64,000 nt of DNA from an uncultured cyanobacterium (GCA_963744145.1 CAVUSO010000001.1:5312001-5376000), one strand, 5' to 3'. Shown: positions 9,962-21,952, counted from the stretch's first letter. Notes: generated by a model not told the origin, from the sequence alone. Translations and numbers: made by a program.

Positions 9962-10031
9962 TTAGACTTATACCGATTTTTGATGAGGTTGCATAGAGGT
10001 TGACCTCTCCCCCAACCCCTCTCCTACAAGG

Positions 10032-11749
10032 CTATCCATTAGTCACATCTTTCTTAACAATCCTGAAACTATTACCTAGTAACGGTTTCAGGATTCATGG
10101 CCGCAGGTGGAGTTGACTAATTGCACAGAATATGCAATTGAGAGCTGCGGGCGGACTAGGAGTGAGCTATACAGCAGTGGTCGCTCAGAAGAAAAGTCTT
10201 GATGAGTATAGTATAGAGAGGAAAAGAAGAAGTAAGGTGGAAGGAAAAAATGGAAAAGTGGGCAGAGCAAGAATTAGCCACAGTAGACTTGGGAGATGCG
10301 AGGAGAAACAAGCGATTAATTCGGTTGGTGGAAGATTTAGCCGCACAACCAACCAGCAGCGTCCCACAAGCTTGTGGCAATAGTGCAGCTACTAGTGCGG
10401 CTTATGACTTGTGGAAGTCGCCCTATTTTCAGCCATCAGATATCCGACAGGCACATACAGCCAGCACGATCGAAAGAATTAAAGCGCATCAGACAGTATT
10501 AGCAATACAAGATACCACAAATATCGATTTAACCAATCATCCTAGCACGAGAGGGATTGGTTATTTAGATCACCGAAAATCAGCCGGAATAAAAGTACAT
10601 TCAACGCTAGCTGTAACCACTTCAGGAGTACCATTAGGGATAATTGAGCAACAGGTATGGACTAGAGAGCTGGCGAATTTGGGGATAGCCAAAAAACGGC
10701 GGGAAAGAGAAATTAAAGAAAAGGAAAGCCACCGCTGGTTGGCAGGATTAAAAGTTACAGAAAATTTAATCCCAAGTGATATTCAAGTAGTAACCGTGGC
10801 GGATTCAGAAGCTGACATATTTGAGCTATTTAGCCAGCCTCGTGCCGCCAATTCCCATTTACTAATTCGCGGTACTCATAATCGGAAAGTAGACCATTCT
10901 GCCCAATATTTACATCAAGCGATCCGTCAAACTCCCGCAGCAGGAGAATTAAGTATAGAAGTCAAAAGAAATCCGACACATCAAGCTAGAACTGCCGTTC
11001 TGACAGTACGATTCGCCACTTTAGAGATTCAAGTTCCAGCACACCATATCGGGCGAAAGCAACTCCAACCAGTCAAATTACAAGTAATTCTAGCATTAGA
11101 AGAAAACCCAGAACCCGGAGTTAAACCGATTAGTTGGTTGTTAATTACCAGTCTGGAAGTTAATGACTTAGCAGCGGCAGTCCAATGTGTAGAATGGTAT
11201 ACATACCGTTGGTTAATAGAACGCTATCATTACACTCTAAAAAGTGGGTGTGGAATTGAGAAATTACAACTAGAAACCGTGCGAAGAATCGAAATGGCCT
11301 TAGCGACTTATACGATTGTAAGTTGGCGTTTATTATGGCTTACATATTCGGCTAGAACGAATCCAATGGCATCGAGTGCTGAGGTTTTAGAAACTCATGA
11401 ATGGCAATCTTTATGTGCGACTATTACTAAAAATCCTATCCCTCCAAAAACTCCACCTTCTTTACAAGAAGCCGTCCGTATGATCGCGATGTTGGGGGGA
11501 TTTTTAGGTCGAAAAGGTGATGGTGAACCGGGAGTAAAAACGATTTGGAGAGGATTAAGAAGATTACATGATATTGCAGCTACCTGGAAATTATGTACTT
11601 AAATTGGCTGGTGTATAGTTATTACTCTCCAACTCGTTACCAGATCATATTCTGGATCATTTTGTCAAGTAGCTTAATTACTATTAATCCTGAAACCGTT
11701 ACGGGGTAATAGTTTCAGGATTGTTAAGAAAGATGTGACTAATGGATAG
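10032..11749 (+). mobile_element. IS4-family (IS50/Tn5-like) insertion sequence, apparently intact
   Basis: ~64-bp terminal inverted repeats starting CTATCCATTAGTCACATC; 9-bp target duplication CCTACAAGG (10023-10031, 11750-11758). Confidence 0.92.
10250..11602 (+). CDS. IS4-family Tn5-like DDE transposase
   Basis: LGDARRNKRL N-terminus, QDTT, ADSEAD, YTYRWLIERYHYTLKSG, GGFLGRKGDGEPGVKTIWRGL. Confidence 0.95.
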   Translation: MEKWAEQELATVDLGDARRNKRLIRLVEDLAAQPTSSVPQACGNSAATSAAYDLWKSPYFQPSDIRQAHTASTIERIKAHQTVLAIQDTTNIDLTNHPSTRGIGYLDHRKSAGIKVHSTLAVTTSGVPLGIIEQQVWTRELANLGIAKKRREREIKEKESHRWLAGLKVTENLIPSDIQVVTVADSEADIFELFSQPRAANSHLLIRGTHNRKVDHSAQYLHQAIRQTPAAGELSIEVKRNPTHQARTAVLTVRFATLEIQVPAHHIGRKQLQPVKLQVILALEENPEPGVKPISWLLITSLEVNDLAAAVQCVEWYTYRWLIERYHYTLKSGCGIEKLQLETVRRIEMALATYTIVSWRLLWLTYSARTNPMASSAEVLETHEWQSLCATITKNPIPPKTPPSLQEAVRMIAMLGGFLGRKGDGEPGVKTIWRGLRRLHDIAATWKLCT

Positions 11750-11989
11750 CCTACAAGGAGAGGGGAGCAAGATTTATCCCCCGCATCGGAGACGATCGCC
11801 AACGCATTCGGTGAAAAAAAAGCCTTATTAAATTTATGGTTAGCAATGGATGAGATTAAAGCCAAAGTAGTTTATGTGCAGCAGGAATTGCTTTTAGAAC
11901 CTGGACAATTGACTTGAGATTTAAAAAATGTTATTCATGAAGATAAATAAGTGAAATAAAATTATGAAAATTAAAGGTATTAAACGGGG

Positions 11990-15751: not shown

Positions 15752-16234
15752 CCTAACTTAACATTAGCAAACCTAGCAGGAGCAAATCTAGCTCAAGCTA
15801 ATCTAACCTCTGCTAATTTCTCAATAGTAAATTTAACGGGAGCTGACTTAAGTGGAACTAATATAACTTCAGCAAATTTAACAGGAGCAGATTTAAGTAA
15901 AGCCAATTTACAAAATGCCCAATTAAATCAAGTATTATTAAGTAACACAAAATTAATAGAAGTCTGTTTACTAGGAGCAAAAATTGTTAATACTAAGCTA
16001 AAGGGAATAGACTTAACCAAAGCGAATTTATGTGGTGCTAATCTTAATAGTTTAGATCTGACTGAGGCAAATTTCACTTCTGCTAATTTAATTGGAGCTA
16101 ATCTACAAAATGCCAATCTAGAAAGGGCTAACTTAAAAGAAGCAAACCTAACTGGTGCTAACCTACAAAACGCCAAATTAAATGGTGCTATGCTAACTGG
16201 TGCAATTATGCCAGATGGGACGATTCACAAATAG
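15752..16234 (+). pseudogene. 5'-truncated pentapeptide-repeat gene
   Basis: About 160 open codons of A(N/D)Lxx repeats ending GAIMPDGTIHK*, preceded directly by an in-frame TGA with no start codon. Confidence 0.8.
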
Positions 16235-16329
16235 AGTGTTTATTGGCGATCACACTTAATCCCGGAGCTGTGTCTTCTTGGTAGCGAGGTAATCACATTT
16301 TTCCAGCTCTGGACAAGGTTTTGAGTGGT

Positions 16330-16357
16330 GCGATCGCTCTCCTATCCTATAATTTAG
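16330..16357 (+). promoter_or_regulatory. HIP1-TATAAT motif, repeated at 17553-17580
   Basis: GCGATCGCTCTCCTATCCTATAATTTAG vs GCGATCGCTCTTATATCCTATAATATAG (25/28 identical), each just upstream of a gene. Confidence 0.6.
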
Positions 16358-16397
16358 ATGTGCCATGTAGTATAACCATCCATCCACCGCGACAGAA

Positions 16398-17498
16398 ATG
16401 TTAGACCAATCAGCCTTAACAAAGACAGACCATGGTTGGCAATTTGCCACAGAGAAAGACTTGGAAGACTTTGTTTGGCAAAATATACAGGAGTTGTTCG
16501 GATTAACTCCTTTCAAAAGACAGTATTCGGCTAAGGGTGAATATTGCGATATTTTGGCAATTAGTGAAAATAGACAGTTAACCATCTTAGAACTCAAAAA
16601 TACAGAAGACCGTTATATTGTCCAACAGCTAACCCGTTACTATGATAATTTGCTTTCTGAGAGACCTTTAGCTGATCAAATAGATTATGAGCAAACAGTT
16701 CAATTAATTGCACTTAAACCATGTTTTCATCGACACAATGAGATAGATAGAAAATATCATTTGCTGCAATTTCAATTCCTGCTATTTGATATTGTCCAGG
16801 AAGATAAGCAACTTTATTTTAATCTGAAAAATTCTGATAATACTTTGATAATTCGTCAATTACCTATTCCTTATCCTCAAGAGTATGTTGATGAAGATGA
16901 TATTATTACTTTAAATGTTAAGACTATTCCCCCATTACCTAAATCACTTCAAACCAAACTAAACGAACGTTACCAAAATGATAAGTCTAGGATTTTAGAA
17001 ATTCGTGAAAAGATTCTTATGTTTGATGAACAGATGGGAGAAAATAATACACCTACAGATACTTGTTATGGGTTAAAAGGGCGAAATGGTAATATAATTG
17101 ACGGTTTTCAGTGTGTTGAGTTTTGGCACAAAGTTGTGAACATAGATGATGAAAAAAAATCTTATTTTTATTGGTTTTATTTATGGTTACCTTTTCCTAG
17201 AAAAATGTTGGGAATTTATTCGCAATCTACAGATAAAAAGATTGCCAGAATAAAGATTAATAGTCTAGATTTACAATCAGTTTCTACTATTACTATTAAT
17301 CAAAATCAAAAAGTCCGTACATCACCACCGTTGATAGATCATAGAGTATCAGCATATTCAGATTGGTATAGTCGGCTAATGGGAAAACAAATTCAGTTAA
17401 ATACTGTAGATGATCTTATTGATATTGCTTTGGAGGAATGGTTAAAAAGAAAGAATGAGAAGTTAAATGGTGCTAATAGGACTAATATTGATGAGTAG
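16398..17498 (+). CDS. NucS/RecB-like PD-(D/E)xK nuclease with unknown C-terminal domain
   Basis: EKDLEDFV...CDILA...ILELKN...VQQLTRY motif set. Confidence 0.75.
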   Translation: MLDQSALTKTDHGWQFATEKDLEDFVWQNIQELFGLTPFKRQYSAKGEYCDILAISENRQLTILELKNTEDRYIVQQLTRYYDNLLSERPLADQIDYEQTVQLIALKPCFHRHNEIDRKYHLLQFQFLLFDIVQEDKQLYFNLKNSDNTLIIRQLPIPYPQEYVDEDDIITLNVKTIPPLPKSLQTKLNERYQNDKSRILEIREKILMFDEQMGENNTPTDTCYGLKGRNGNIIDGFQCVEFWHKVVNIDDEKKSYFYWFYLWLPFPRKMLGIYSQSTDKKIARIKINSLDLQSVSTITINQNQKVRTSPPLIDHRVSAYSDWYSRLMGKQIQLNTVDDLIDIALEEWLKRKNEKLNGANRTNIDE

Positions 17499-17499
17499 A

Positions 17500-17563
17500 C
17501 ATCATTTCCCTTTTATGTTGCCCCCATTTCTCCCACATCTGACGGTTAAAGGGCGATCGCTCT
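17500..17563 (+). repeat. Inter-cassette linker, copy A
   Basis: CATCATTTCCCTTTTATGTTGCCCCCATTTCTCCCACATCTGACGGTTAAAGGGCGATCGCTCT; near-identical at 19352-19414, partial at 20455-20490. Confidence 0.9.
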
Positions 17564-17635
17564 TATATCCTATAATATAGCACAATATGGATCAGAATTG
17601 ACCAAATATAGGGCAATTCAAAAGGAGATGCTTTT

Positions 17636-17887
17636 ATGCGATCGGAATTACGGATTGAGACTAAAGTTTTACCAGGCAACAAGATTGAGATCAATTTGCC
17701 TGCCGATATGCTCTCAAGTTCTGTGGGACAAACCATTGAGGTGATTGTTCTGCTGCCTGAGCGACCGCAATTAATGCGGCAGAATATCCTGGAATGGATT
17801 GAGCAGGCACGTAGCCGAGTATCCTTCAGAAGCGTTGAAGAAATTAACCGTGACCTGCAAGCCGAAAGAGACTCATGGGACAGCTAA
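17636..17887 (+). CDS. Putative antitoxin of the adjacent PIN toxin
   Basis: 83 aa, GGAG RBS, ends EEINRDLQAERDSWDS and overlaps the PIN gene start. Confidence 0.75.
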   Translation: MRSELRIETKVLPGNKIEINLPADMLSSSVGQTIEVIVLLPERPQLMRQNILEWIEQARSRVSFRSVEEINRDLQAERDSWDS

Positions 17888-18297
17888 ATTTGCCAGACTC
17901 TGCCAGAATTTACATCGATACCTCAGTTGTAATTTATACAATCGAGGTCAATCCCAATTATTGGCAACTGCTGCAACCGCTGTGGCAAAAATTTCAAGCA
18001 GGACAAATTGAGTTGATTACTAGCGAACTCACTCTCATGGAATCTTTGGTGATCCCATTTAAACAATCCAATGTCAATCTAGTTGATACCTATGAGCAGT
18101 TGCTTTTATCCTCAGTGCTGCAACTTATCCCAATTAGTCGGACTATCTTAAGGGAAGCAGCAAGACTACGCGCTATCATGTCTTCCTTAAGAACGCCTGA
18201 TGCCATTCATGCTGCGACCGCGATCACTTCACACTGCACTCTCCCCAACACCAACAAATGCTCCTCATATTGGCCAATAGAATGTGATCGCGCATAG
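17875..18297 (+). CDS. vapC: VapC/PIN-domain toxin with aberrant C-terminus
   Basis: IYIDTSVVIY, SELTLMES, TPDAIHAATA; the expected terminal T-x-D motif is missing. Confidence 0.75.
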   Translation: MGQLNLPDSARIYIDTSVVIYTIEVNPNYWQLLQPLWQKFQAGQIELITSELTLMESLVIPFKQSNVNLVDTYEQLLLSSVLQLIPISRTILREAARLRAIMSSLRTPDAIHAATAITSHCTLPNTNKCSSYWPIECDRA

Positions 18298-18323
18298 TAG
18301 ATGGATAAACGAGTGGGTAAACT

Positions 18324-18417
18324 CTTCGACTACGCTCAGGGCAAGCTCAGGGCAAGCGCTTAAGCAATCATTTATTCGCCGAAATGCTCTTTGCCCCTAC
18401 GGTTAACTGAACTGTAT
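18324..18417. repeat. Partial MITE/REP debris
   Basis: GCTCAGGGCAA duplicated; CCGAAATGCT...GCCCCTAC half-element as at ~12060; end-like TTAACTGAACTGTAT. Confidence 0.5.
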
Positions 18418-18446
18418 TGGATTATAAATTAGGGAGTCAATGAATT

Positions 18447-19298
18447 ATGGATCATCGTAAAAACTTTGAAACTTTTACTAAATTGGGAGCGTTAAAGGAT
18501 AATGCAATTAAACTTTGTGGCGAACAATTTATAAATAATTTAATTCAACAGAAGATTAATTCTAAAAATGATAAGTTTTGGTATGCAGTTAATCAAAAAC
18601 TAGGTATACCAGATGATGCTTATGAGCAAATGTTAATTCAGCGGCAAGAGGAAGAAGAAAGAATAAAAGCTAAAGAAAAAGATCGGATTGACACTCTGAT
18701 CAAAAATAGAGTTTTACTTGAAATAATAGATCGAGAAAATTGGCATATTAAAGTCTTTGAAACATTTGAAATAGTTGACAGAATCGTTGATAAAAGTTTT
18801 TTTGCAGAAGCTGTTAAATTAGATGATCCACAGACTACTATAATTACAGACTTTTTCAATAAGAAAAAACGAGCTATCAGTGAAATTAGTTCTTTAATTG
18901 ATAACTTTGAGCGAGAACAAAGAAAACAACGTAATGTCAAAATTATCAGTCAGATTTATTTGATGTATTTATATGTATCTGGAGGGGATAAATATAATGA
19001 GCTTTCAAGAGATGATCCGAAGAAAAAAGATAAAGAAACATTTCTAGGAATTGAGAGTTGGGTAGCAGATTTCGATATATTACCAGAAATTGATAAAGAA
19101 GGATTAATTAGACAACCCCAAAGAATGGGTAAACATCCCAAAAAAGTAACTTATATTGAATTTACAAGAAAAGGAATGCAGACCGCTAGAGAAGCTTTAC
19201 AAAAAGTTGATTTAGAGGGTTTGGCAGATTTTCTCAGAGAGAGAGAATACCATGAGGATTATTTTGCTCAAGAAAGATTTAATGAAGATGAAGATTAA
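18447..19298 (+). CDS. Hypothetical protein with a C-terminal DUF6429-like/winged-helix-like region
   Basis: LMYLY...W..DFDIL..ID.EGLI...IEFTRKG...ARE pattern; GGAG RBS. Confidence 0.55.
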   Translation: MDHRKNFETFTKLGALKDNAIKLCGEQFINNLIQQKINSKNDKFWYAVNQKLGIPDDAYEQMLIQRQEEEERIKAKEKDRIDTLIKNRVLLEIIDRENWHIKVFETFEIVDRIVDKSFFAEAVKLDDPQTTIITDFFNKKKRAISEISSLIDNFEREQRKQRNVKIISQIYLMYLYVSGGDKYNELSRDDPKKKDKETFLGIESWVADFDILPEIDKEGLIRQPQRMGKHPKKVTYIEFTRKGMQTAREALQKVDLEGLADFLREREYHEDYFAQERFNEDED

Positions 19299-19309
19299 TT
19301 AATCTCACA

Positions 19310-19486
19310 GCGATCGCACTCTTCCAATATCATCCCAATCGCGATCGCACCCATCATTTCCCTTTCATGTTGCCCCCTTTCTCCCACATCTGACGGTTAA
19401 AGGGCGATCGCTCTCCACCTGTCTCAACTGTGATCGCACCTCACCGAATAAATATGGACAACTGGGAAATTTTGAGTAGCGATCGC
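19310..19486 (+). repeat. HIP1 stack containing linker copy B (19352-19414)
   Basis: GCGATCGC at 19310, 19341, 19404, 19479 and GTGATCGC at 19430. Confidence 0.85.
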
Positions 19487-19571
19487 AATTTTAGGTAGAA
19501 AAATGCCAATTATTTTCAGATGGTTTGATCTGTGGATTGATATATAATTTAGATGCGGAGGGGTTAATCCT

Positions 19572-20111
19572 ATGAAATTACAAAAACTCTTAGAAGAAAA
19601 ACGGACTGATATTCTAGATATTGCCGCTAATACCAATTAACTATGAAATTGCACTTAATCTGAGGTTGATCTGTTAGGTCAGGGCAGGTTTATAATGGTG
19701 ATCTGTTGGTGGCAAAATTGACTGGTGAACCTGCCCCTACCAATTTTATCCTCAATTTGCGGATTTCTGTAGGGGTGGGTTCACCGAGATGTTTGACATT
19801 TACCTACTAATCATCAAAACCCACCCTCACCCACAGATCAATCTTATCAATGTATCTTCATGGTGAATTGGTATAAACACGGAGCGTTTAATGTCCGGGT
19901 ATTTGGCTCAGTGGCGCGGGGTGAGGAAACAGAAAATAGTGATATTGATTTGTTAGTTGATTATGATCTCAAGAAAATTTCCCCTTGGTTTCCAGTGCGG
20001 CTAATCCGGGATTTAGAGGGATTATTAAGTCATAAGGTTGATGTGGTGACAGAAAACGGGCTAAAATCTCGGATTCGCGATCGCGTGTTGCAGGATTGTA
20101 TTTTGCTATGA
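19572..20111 (+). pseudogene. MNT (minimal nucleotidyltransferase) antitoxin interrupted by a MITE
   Basis: Removing 19629-19874 restores the 97-aa [37 protein letters not shown]...SDIDLLV. Confidence 0.9.
19630..19874. mobile_element. IS630-type MITE (~245 bp) carrying REP-like stem-loops
   Basis: Ends ATACCAATTAACTATGAA / TTCATGGTGAATTGGTAT (2 mismatches); terminal ATACCAATT shared with the IS630 at 20512. Confidence 0.85.
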
Positions 20112-20439
20112 GAAGTGATACAGAACGGTTAAAGGATATAGAAGAAGCCATTACCAAAATCGATAAATACAGTGTGAAAGGTAGAGAAAACTTTTTGGCT
20201 GATGAGTTAGTATAAGCATGGATTTTGCTTCATTTGCAGATGATTGGAGAAGCGGCAAGGTCTATGTCTGAGGAAACAGGCAATATTTACAAGTCAGTTG
20301 GCAAGATATTATTGATTTTCGCAATTTGGTTGTTCATGAATATTTCAAGGTTGATTTGGTAATTGTTTGGCTAATTGTTGAAAGTGAGTTGCCGATTTTG
20401 AAATCTCAAATTGCGTTGATCCTGGAAGAATTAAACTGA
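20108..20439 (+). pseudogene. HEPN (DUF86/HepT-like) toxin pseudogene
   Basis: [11 protein letters not shown]...ELV*(TAA 20213-20215)AWILLHLQMIGEAA, frameshift near 20280, then W...FRNLVVHEYF with RX4H motif; ATGA overlap with MNT. Confidence 0.88.
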
Positions 20440-20443
20440 AATT

Positions 20444-20490
20444 GCGATCGCACCCATCATTTCCCTTTCATGTTGCCCCCATTTCTCCCA
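20444..20490 (+). repeat. Inter-cassette linker, copy C (truncated)
   Basis: GCGATCGCACCCATCATTTCCCTTTCATGTTGCCCCCATTTCTCCCA, then an element end ATACGGTTCGGTTAAG. Confidence 0.85.
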
Positions 20491-20511
20491 ATACGGTTCG
20501 GTTAAGGTCTA

Positions 20512-21699
20512 ATACCAATTCTTGCAATTTCGACTACAGATAGTATAGAGTATAATTTGAGTAGAGTTGAAGGAAAAATATGGCAGGAGTTTATCACCTA
20601 GACATCAAGGAAAGTGAAGCCGAGCTGAAGAAATTGCTCGCAGTGGAAAAAACTGGTTCAGGAAAAGAACGATTACAAGTATTATATCTACTCAAGACAA
20701 CCAAAGCTAAAATAGTCACAGATGTTGCCGAAATTTTGGGCAGAAATCGAGTCACTGTTCGTAGGGGCGCAAGAGCAATACGCCCGTACACAAATACCGT
20801 CAAGGAGGACTGGCCAAATATCTGGGTAAAAAAGTGGGTACATGCCGACCGAGAAAAATTCCTGAATGGGCGATAAAAAGTTTAGAAAAACGACTAAATG
20901 AAGAGGAAGGATTTAATAGTTATGGGGAAATTTGTCAATGGTTATCATCAAATCTTGGCATAGAAGCCAAATATAAAACCGTTCATTAATTAGTGTATTA
21001 TAAACTAAAAGCCTCACCAAAAATCGCGAGGCCGAAAAGTACAGAACCGTCAAAAAAAAAGCTAGATAATTTTAGAAATCACTTGGCAGAAGACCTCGCT
21101 ATGCGTAGGGGCGTATTGCAATACGCCCGTACTTTGCTATAACAGTAATGGGTTTAGGGGATAAAATCAGATTTTTATGTCAAGATGAAACGCGGCTCGG
21201 ACTGAAGACGATTAGTGGGAGAAAAATCACCGCTTGTGGAGTAAAACCAATTGGTAAAGAAAGCGTGGAAATTTCAAGCAACTTATATTTATGGTGTAGT
21301 AGAGCCAAAGACGGGTGAACATTTCTTTTACGAGTTTACTCATCTCAATAGTCAATGCTTTCCGAGATTTTTAGACTTAGTAGCCGCGCATTTTTCGGAT
21401 AGTATTTTGATCATTCAGTTAGACAATCGTGGTTTTCATAAAGCTAAAAAGTTGGTAATTCCTAAAAACGTTATTTTAATGTTTCAACCATCCCATTGTC
21501 CTGAATCAAATCCAATTGAACAGGTATGGCAATATCTCAAAAAGGGATTGAGATGGGAATTACCAAAGAACTTAGATGGGTTAAGACTTTTAATTAGTAA
21601 AGAACTAGAAAAAATGAATTCAGAAGTAGTTGCCTCAATTACGGGACCAGCCTATATATTAGAGACTCTATCTGTAGTCGGCATTTAGAGAATTGGTAT
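20512..21699 (+). mobile_element. IS630-family element with degraded transposase
   Basis: TA-ATACCAATTCT...AGAATTGGTAT-TA; HTH part 20580-20876, QDETRLG, and DN.GFH...PESNPIEQVW in 21251-21688; stops and frameshifts. Confidence 0.9.
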
Positions 21700-21952
21700 T
21701 AGATTTTAATGCTTTTGAGCTTGACCTATATTTTTCCTCAGCTAGCGAGTGACAAAAGAGGGATTACTATCGCTGGCATACTAGAATCCGTCCTGTGGCT
21801 GGTGATATTATTTTAATAAAGGATAATCGTTGGCATGTAAAATCTGTTGAGCTAGCAAGTGCTAACTTTTCTGTTGATGGGTGGTTATGTCTTGAAGAAG
21901 TTGTTTAAATACAGATAATTCGTAAATTAGGAAAATTGTAGTAGCATAAAAT

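Follow-up and report, generated by a model that had tools for sequence, protein, structure and literature searches.

A HIP1-punctuated mosaic repeat between accessory gene blocks in the genome of an uncultured cyanobacterium

Several described systems place short repeated words between genes that come and go. The Neisseria intergenic mosaic elements (NIME) are dRS3-RS arrays in which a short palindromic word stands between spacer modules of 20-200 nt; the arrays are dynamic and have been proposed to help a transformable organism exchange flanking genes with, or insert them from, incoming DNA (PMC1797815), and that paper states that they are not seen outside Neisseria. In cyanobacteria, the palindrome HIP1 has been found at junctions of deletion and recombination with no dedicated enzyme identified, as in the smtB excision flanked by HIP1 (Gupta 1993, as cited in PMC13756078) and in strain PCC 7002, where HIP1 in the homology arms raises integration (10.1101/2024.09.10.611283). 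SDR5 of Nostocaceae is a short dispersed repeat between HIP1 words (Elhai 2008, as cited in PMC4390886 and PMC5861425). Integrons and their remnants (CALINs) combine co-oriented accessory genes, toxin-antitoxin cargo and related repeats in between, in some cases with no integrase nearby (PMC4889954). We compared these systems with an array of accessory genes and HIP1-bearing linkers at positions 16330 to 20490 of a 64,000-nt stretch of DNA, hereafter the window, from an uncultured cyanobacterium (G000:C1:5312001-5376000; GCA_963744145.1 CAVUSO010000001.1). HIP1 denotes the 8-bp palindrome GCGATCGC, which occurs 7760 times on contig C1, or about once per kb, in a host genome of 7.7 Mb and 39% GC.

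The original prediction for this locus, an integron-like array of four cassettes delimited by a recurring linker, was partly confirmed as an observation and partly supported as an interpretation. Three co-oriented linkers were located as claimed at 17500-17563 (copy A), 19352-19414 (copy B) and 20455-20490 (copy C), with the predicted motifs at their ends, and at distances of 1, 53 and 15 nt from the preceding stop codons, which matches the predicted range of 1-53 bp. In 64 nt, a single substitution and a single indel separate copies A and B (97% alike), as had been counted before, while copy C, over 36 nt, differs by one substitution from A and by one indel from B. The division into four discrete cassettes did not hold. 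Since only a high-copy repeat and no linker lies between vapC and the DUF6429-like gene, the array consists of three linker-bounded blocks, which contain a NucS-like gene (16330-17500), an antitoxin-vapC pair with the DUF6429-like gene (17553-19310) and an MNT-HEPN pair (19479-20444). Exact HIP1 sites are found at 16330, 17553, 19310, 19341, 19404, 19479, 20077 and 20444, and thereby at five of the six block ends (16330; 17553 and 19310; 19479 and 20444). The sixth end, on the left of copy A, starts 3 nt past the HIP1 position of copy B. HIP1 is absent inside the genes of blocks 1 and 2, two of which have a GC content of 30-32%, and no cargo is duplicated within the array.

The linker recurs more than chance would explain. 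A BLAST search with copy B alone returned 12 copies in the genome (E<=1.1e-7), after which the best remaining match had E 0.028, and a hidden Markov model built from 11 copies recovered the same 12 and nothing further below E 0.57. The 12 copies represent eight loci; nine of them lie at seven loci outside the window array, so the linker is not special to the array. Within the array, the identity between copies is 97-98%; between loci, and also for the pair at 7.00 Mb, it is 68-87%. The linker corresponds to a single module (M1, with about 55 nt between its HIP1 sites) of a composite repeat of about 250 nt, the complete chain of which reads HIP1-M0-HIP1-M1-HIP1-M2-HIP1-M3-(HIP1-like)-M4-HIP1-M5. 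M1 is nearly always accompanied by its neighbouring modules in a set order, and a ninth locus carries M3 only. Clustered copies share one orientation, and 4 of the 11 adjacent copy pairs are less than 2.5 kb apart, a number that was reached in none of 200000 random draws. The predicted linker is thus a real unit, but belongs to a longer HIP1-punctuated repeat that extends beyond the predicted boundaries, with copy B spanning 19310-19486 and further modules at 16288-16357 and 17553-17580.

All modules and linker copies of the array are on the plus strand, as are its genes. Copy B (19310-19486) has the composition HIP1-M0-HIP1-M1-HIP1-M2-(HIP1-like)-M3-HIP1, with exact HIP1 at 19310, 19341, 19404 and 19479. 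To the left, M4, the HIP1 site at 16330 and M5 occupy 16288-16357 and are 85.5% identical over 69 nt to C1 1193532-1193464. Copy A (17500-17580) consists of M1 without its left HIP1, the HIP1 site at 17553 and, directly behind it, M5. It is 97% identical to copy B up to 3 nt past HIP1 and 89% identical to the 16330 site from HIP1 on, so that it changes from B-like to M5-like within an 11-nt shared word that includes HIP1. Copy A is thus a chimera in which M2-M4 were skipped at HIP1. Copy C (20444-20490) retains HIP1 and the first 39 nt of M1 and ends at the end of a mobile element. The left border of the array is the 3' part and 3' flank of a pentapeptide-repeat gene (15753-16287, plus strand), which breaks off halfway through a HIP1 site. 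Matches to its paralogues at C1 3092345, 6197194 and 1198178 all stop at window position 16287, in the middle of HIP1, and the HIP1 at this junction is intact in all three paralogous loci.

Our best reading, by analogy, is that the array is a HIP1-based intergenic mosaic element that may work like the NIME arrays without being a member of them. Membership in NIME proper is contradicted by the word itself (an 8-bp HIP1 versus a 20-bp dRS3), by the copy number (12 copies of one module versus hundreds) and by the cargo, which is of the toxin-antitoxin or defence type versus surface proteins, with no candidate phage recombinase here. Compared to the smtB and PCC 7002 cases, HIP1 in the window is part of a reusable repeat with several modules, it bounds serial gene blocks, and the linkers are duplicated. 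We infer from the duplicated linkers around serial blocks that there have been gains as well as losses. In contrast to integron cassettes, the blocks hold one to three genes with TATAAT elements of their own, genes are cut internally, and there are neither attC cores nor a hairpin, nor is there an IntI in the genome. Unlike SDR5, M1 is about 55 nt long, has a low copy number, is part of an ordered module chain and lacks a covarying structure. SDR5 belongs to the 21-27 nt length class. We found no published description of HIP1-punctuated linkers between accessory genes in a literature search conducted largely without subscription papers and without supplements. HIP1 at junctions as such is already known.

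Modules M0-M5 are combined differently at the nine loci, being skipped, doubled or reordered at HIP1. The other clusters are mosaics like the window array, with further cargo that is likewise cut at HIP1 and joined to modules. At 1.19 Mb, the repeat is found with DUF1822 and DinD fragments, a pentapeptide gene, an MNT paralogue and, at 1.194 Mb, a stub of a HEPN paralogue that breaks off at HIP1 and runs into M1. The 7.00-Mb locus contains BrxD-like ATPases and a GIY-YIG fragment. At 7.169-7.172 Mb, a linker copy is present together with Phd-like, DUF7226, KilA-N-like and DinD genes; HmaB- and HmaA-like genes flank this group, and an HmaC-like ATPase lies upstream of it (PADLOC matches). At C1 0.618 Mb, a gene remnant is followed by two tandem M0 modules between HIP1 sites, and at C1 4.850 Mb an M2-like piece precedes M1. 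Scattering of the linker among core genes, which would count against the original prediction, was seen in part, in that the copies at C1 0.618 and 0.817 Mb adjoin housekeeping genes (ATP synthase and mreBCD regions). There are four related pentapeptide-repeat genes, each no more than about 5 kb from repeat-family modules, two of full length with coiled-coil-like N-termini and two truncated at the 5' end.

Junctions in these regions coincide with HIP1 above the level of shifted controls, in line with the predicted recombination at HIP1/linker units. Among the shared segments of the nine loci (at least 45 nt, at least 85% identity, unmasked), 30 of the 55 ends fall on an exact HIP1 in at least one partner, as compared to 3-16 in seven controls with ends shifted by 18-40 nt. 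Since these ends depend on one another and the loci had been picked via a HIP1-rich repeat, this result is support rather than a probability. Genome-wide, after high-copy repeats had been masked, 138 of 2134 ends of duplicate segments were on HIP1, as compared to 61-86 in nine shifted controls. AT-rich genes are HIP1-poor inside, though often trailed by HIP1. Among genes followed by 80 nt or more of free space, 30/116 with less than 33% GC have a HIP1 within 60 nt after the stop codon, as compared to 56/759 with at least 42% GC (26% versus 7%, about 3.5-fold; odds ratio 4.4, p 4e-8).

Other regions of the genome show similar layouts, with arrays of small accessory genes. A second HIP1-bearing linker of about 90 nt occurs only at C1 5.794-5.810 Mb, in eight co-oriented copies within 16 kb, where it separates aspartyl-protease, PIN and unannotated two-gene modules (C1:5793900-5809800). 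By appearance, the unannotated modules at 5.79-5.81 Mb resemble toxin-fragment/immunity pairs. A third HIP1-bearing repeat, with units of 166-700 nt and several HIP1 sites, is present only at C1 3.684-3.718 Mb in seven co-oriented copies within 34 kb. It is interleaved with XisH/XisI, DUF433 and UPF0175-DUF3368 modules (C1:3682000-3700000), many of which are duplicated at 94-99% identity and shuffled in order. Both families are unrelated to the window linker. A screen for local repeat families detected 14 families, of which 8 bear HIP1; the screen missed the window's own family and is therefore incomplete. One further region, C1:902675-908550, holds five tandem near-identical paralogues of 292-324 aa with HIP1-rich spacers.

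For comparison we used genomes of the same order, none of which is of the same genus as the host. Homologues of the NucS-like protein were found in 79 of 300 other genomes and those of the toxin-antitoxin pair in 28 of 300, so that the distribution of the cargo is wide and patchy. A locus-level search with the NucS-like protein found no relative, unlike the genome search. The neighbours downstream of mutS2 differ in the relatives that were read. The repeat itself gave only matches of 22-40 nt in 3 of 40 relatives (E>=3.7e-4), and neither the MNT upstream region nor the second linker family was found in any of the 300 other genomes, with two candidates scored per genome. A degenerate linker pattern matched the same two loci in genome and metagenome contigs and none in viral contigs; these two loci are inside a peptidase coding sequence and were rejected as chance matches. 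Among 18 genomes of genus g55, seven contain a match to the flank of one toxin-antitoxin homologue, and the loci in these seven were compared. Genomes G167 and G308 differ there by exactly 4,086 bp from HIP1 to HIP1, the segment being missing in G167. The missing segment holds a module of two genes that includes a large repeat-rich protein, and its left HIP1 is within the coding start of the first gene. Thus, HIP1-to-HIP1 events do happen between genomes, yet they are a minority at the g55 locus. One DNA sequencing run and no RNA run was listed for this region. The contigs of the DNA run are of low depth, and since the eight longest pieces are identical to the window, this run may be the source sample. 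All joints in these contigs can be explained by paralogues. In the joint 19437->16289, the letters in between are those of the 1.1935-Mb paralogue; the joint 16287->20486 is consistent with the paralogue at 6.1977 Mb, and 19627->19874 with the MNT paralogue that lacks the interruption, or perhaps with an element-free allele. The contigs provide no evidence for or against circles.

Taken together, we read the linker as one module of a lineage-specific intergenic mosaic repeat with HIP1-bounded pieces, and consider it rather probable that the array grew and decayed by crossovers at HIP1 without a dedicated integrase. The blocks were likely joined and trimmed by such crossovers through the general recombination machinery. 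A number of observations weigh against this conclusion. The window locus was read as a single allele, with no empty or alternative allele among the genomes compared. Almost half of the shared-segment ends (25 of 55) are off HIP1; the vapC truncation and the left border of copy A are among these. Local alignments tend to stop at conserved words, HIP1 is conserved more than control octamers (PMC5861425), and HIP1 may be regenerated by mutation. HIP1 is present within 60 nt after the stop codon in just 5 of 29 NucS-like and 4 of 19 vapC homologues. At the g55 locus, which likewise runs counter to part of the original interpretation, the site where the toxin-antitoxin pair comes and goes lies 31 nt from HIP1, and of 128 breakpoints only 4 coincide with HIP1, with 0-11 in the controls and thus no enrichment. 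The low-GC excess of HIP1 persists at 60-120 nt (20/95 versus 38/569), which indicates that this signal is not restricted to the gene end. Finally, three of five other local repeat families that were inspected are plain tandem arrays of paralogues, so that ordinary tandem duplication stays a viable rival.

Under such tandem duplication, a gene and its flank would be copied locally, after which the cargo would be replaced or deleted via any microhomology, HIP1 playing a passive role as the commonest and best conserved short word. The paralogue arrays with HIP1-bearing flanks at C1 0.90, 1.29 and 1.59 Mb, the ends off HIP1 and the g55 breakpoints without HIP1 excess are all in its favour. We regard it as unlikely, given that the window array has no duplicated cargo inside it, that five of the six block ends are exact HIP1 sites, and that the module order switches sharply at HIP1 between partners of 89-97% identity. 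The linker could instead be a decayed small mobile element which inserts at HIP1 in the manner of SDR5 (PMC4390886, PMC5861425) and piles up passively in tolerant accessory regions, leaving the genes unmoved. The dispersal of 12 copies over eight loci, two of them beside housekeeping operons, would fit, as would HIP1 at both ends if taken as a duplicated word. The prediction had noted the lack of terminal inverted repeats; the flanking HIP1 sites do form an 8-bp inverted repeat, and there is nothing further that is like a miniature inverted-repeat transposable element, as neither inverted repeats beyond HIP1 in the linker copies nor target duplications beyond HIP1 in five of five full copies read were found. 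Moreover, M1 nearly always travels with its neighbour modules in fixed order, has no conserved hairpin, and is most alike among neighbouring copies that are all co-oriented. An origin as such an element is therefore improbable.

Site-specific systems fare less well. A dedicated recombinase encoded elsewhere might recognize the linker with HIP1 as its core and move the blocks as circles, as suggested by the near-identical direct repeats that bound blocks 2 and 3, and by the HIP1-core site-specific plasmid recombination cited for Synechococcus PCC 7002 (PMC4390886). The genome contains two tyrosine and six serine recombinase matches, none of them in the window, which agrees with the predicted absence of an integrase there. 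A tyrosine recombinase of 390 aa is encoded about 10 kb from the 7.00-Mb cluster, whereas eight of the nine repeat loci have no recombinase within 15 kb. Because the junctions also use differing HIP1 sites of the repeat, other arrays are marked by unrelated linkers and genes are cut internally, we judge a dedicated recombinase to be quite improbable. About 1 kb from a tyrosine recombinase gene, at about 7.021 Mb, there is a gene for a 169-aa protein that matches Pfam TCTP with 70.9 bits. The TCTP family is known mainly from eukaryotes.

A true integron remnant, with linkers as attC sites, is the least credible of these alternatives and can be considered very improbable, although small co-oriented accessory genes with toxin-antitoxin cargo are present and integrons are possible in cyanobacteria (PMC4889954). 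The search with TIGR02249 gave two matches in the genome, none above the cut-off, and the best tyrosine recombinase scored 41.6 bits against a cut-off of 265. The absence of an integrase is permitted in CALINs. The attC core motif has the form RYYYAAC ... GTTRRRY, and the core heptamers had no matches in any of the five spacers. Copy A folds no better than its shuffles (z 0.5-0.8), the other copies pair mostly HIP1 with HIP1, and the consensus fold of six copies comprises a HIP1 stem plus four pairs with compensatory changes in 0 of 12 pairs. An attC-like hairpin hinted at by one copy was rejected, as there is no covariation. An Rfam scan gave no RNA family and only one chance match. Thus, the array is not an integron, having no integron integrase, attC cores or covarying hairpin, and the term integron-like does not apply in its strict sense.

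The gene labels of the prediction were supported by Pfam, with matches to NucS_C, PIN, NTP_transf_2, HepT-like and, weakly, DUF6429. Block 1 is the HIP1-free gene for a NucS-like PD-(D/E)xK nuclease of 366 aa (16398-17498; 32% GC; NucS_C 28.5 bits). Block 2 starts with the gene for a putative antitoxin of 83 aa (17636-17887), which has no Pfam match and has a counterpart ahead of the PIN gene in all of 19 homologous loci, followed by the truncated VapC/PIN gene (17875-18297). The alignment of VapC to its homologues ends near window position 18225-18240, after which unrelated sequence continues the open reading frame; intact homologues have 146-152 aa, and their conserved C-terminus is absent from the window protein. 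A high-copy repeat that is distinct from the linker (18315-18435, no strand assigned; BLAST depth up to 159), presumably REP-like, separates vapC from the HIP1-free DUF6429-like gene (18447-19298; 283 aa, 30% GC). The DUF6429 match is weak (E 2.6e-4, under the cut-off), and the two homologues of this gene bear PF20008. In block 3, the MNT antitoxin gene (19572-20111) starts at 19572 and is split by a high-copy element of about 250 nt at 19627-19876 with more than 50 genomic matches, and an uninterrupted paralogue is found at C1 1.1946 Mb. The HepT-like HEPN pseudogene (20108-20439) matches PF01934 in two frames and is damaged by one in-frame stop and one frameshift. With VapC truncated and the MNT-HEPN pair broken, the cargo has suffered more damage than predicted, and the array is now in decay. 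Behind it there is a degenerate insertion sequence with 42-nt inverted ends (20502-21709, no strand assigned; 11-13 genomic matches), which is putatively IS630-like. Upstream of mutS2, at 10016-11765, the window also holds an apparently intact transposon with a 450-aa open reading frame and 83-nt inverted ends.

The history of the array could be accounted for by crossovers at HIP1 as follows. A fragment with HIP1 near both ends would join the repeat through a pair of crossovers whose HIP1 sites are offset (on sister chromosomes, for instance), with the left end of the insert at a downstream HIP1 and its right end at an upstream HIP1. Such an offset would duplicate the modules between the two sites around the insert and would reproduce copies A/B and B/C, while the reverse offset would cause deletion and reproduce the skip from M1 to M5 as well as the cut genes. 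Shared repeat sequence of 50-250 nt might add homology for RecA-type or microhomology-led exchange and might favour the same loci repeatedly, and later crossovers from HIP1 to HIP1 or linker to linker would delete or truncate cargo. The DNA would likely come from natural transformation, with comEC present in the host genome. Module M5 may provide any DNA that arrives behind it with a -10 promoter: it ends in TATAAT, and its strict form occurs three times in C1, twice in the window array (16330 and 17553). The M5 sites were absent from the output of a sigma-70 promoter scan, and TA[AT]AAT at an M5-like distance after HIP1 showed no peak genome-wide, so that the promoter is something we infer. 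As the array is in decay, exchange is likely slow and imprecise, without an orderly cassette cycle. A more far-reaching possibility, which we put forward tentatively and with some doubt, is an integrase-free counterpart of the integron, in which chains of HIP1 sites at close spacing would act as landing pads. Offset crossovers at HIP1 would capture foreign defence genes there and duplicate a promoter-bearing linker on both sides of them, thereby creating the next pad, and arrays of this type would have originated in this genome three times or more, each time with a different, unrelated linker.

The function of HIP1 has been an open question for three decades. The window and its sister loci offer natural junctions and a defined substrate of 50-250 nt for asking whether HIP1 focuses crossovers of accessory genes, and the excess of HIP1 behind AT-rich genes is a quantity that is easily determined in other cyanobacteria as well. 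Should the capture model be false, the array would be a decaying island with deletion scars at HIP1. If it is true, it would explain how toxin-antitoxin and defence islands are assembled in cyanobacteria without integrons, and with integrase-free landing pads HIP1 would gain a concrete role in the building of the accessory genome.

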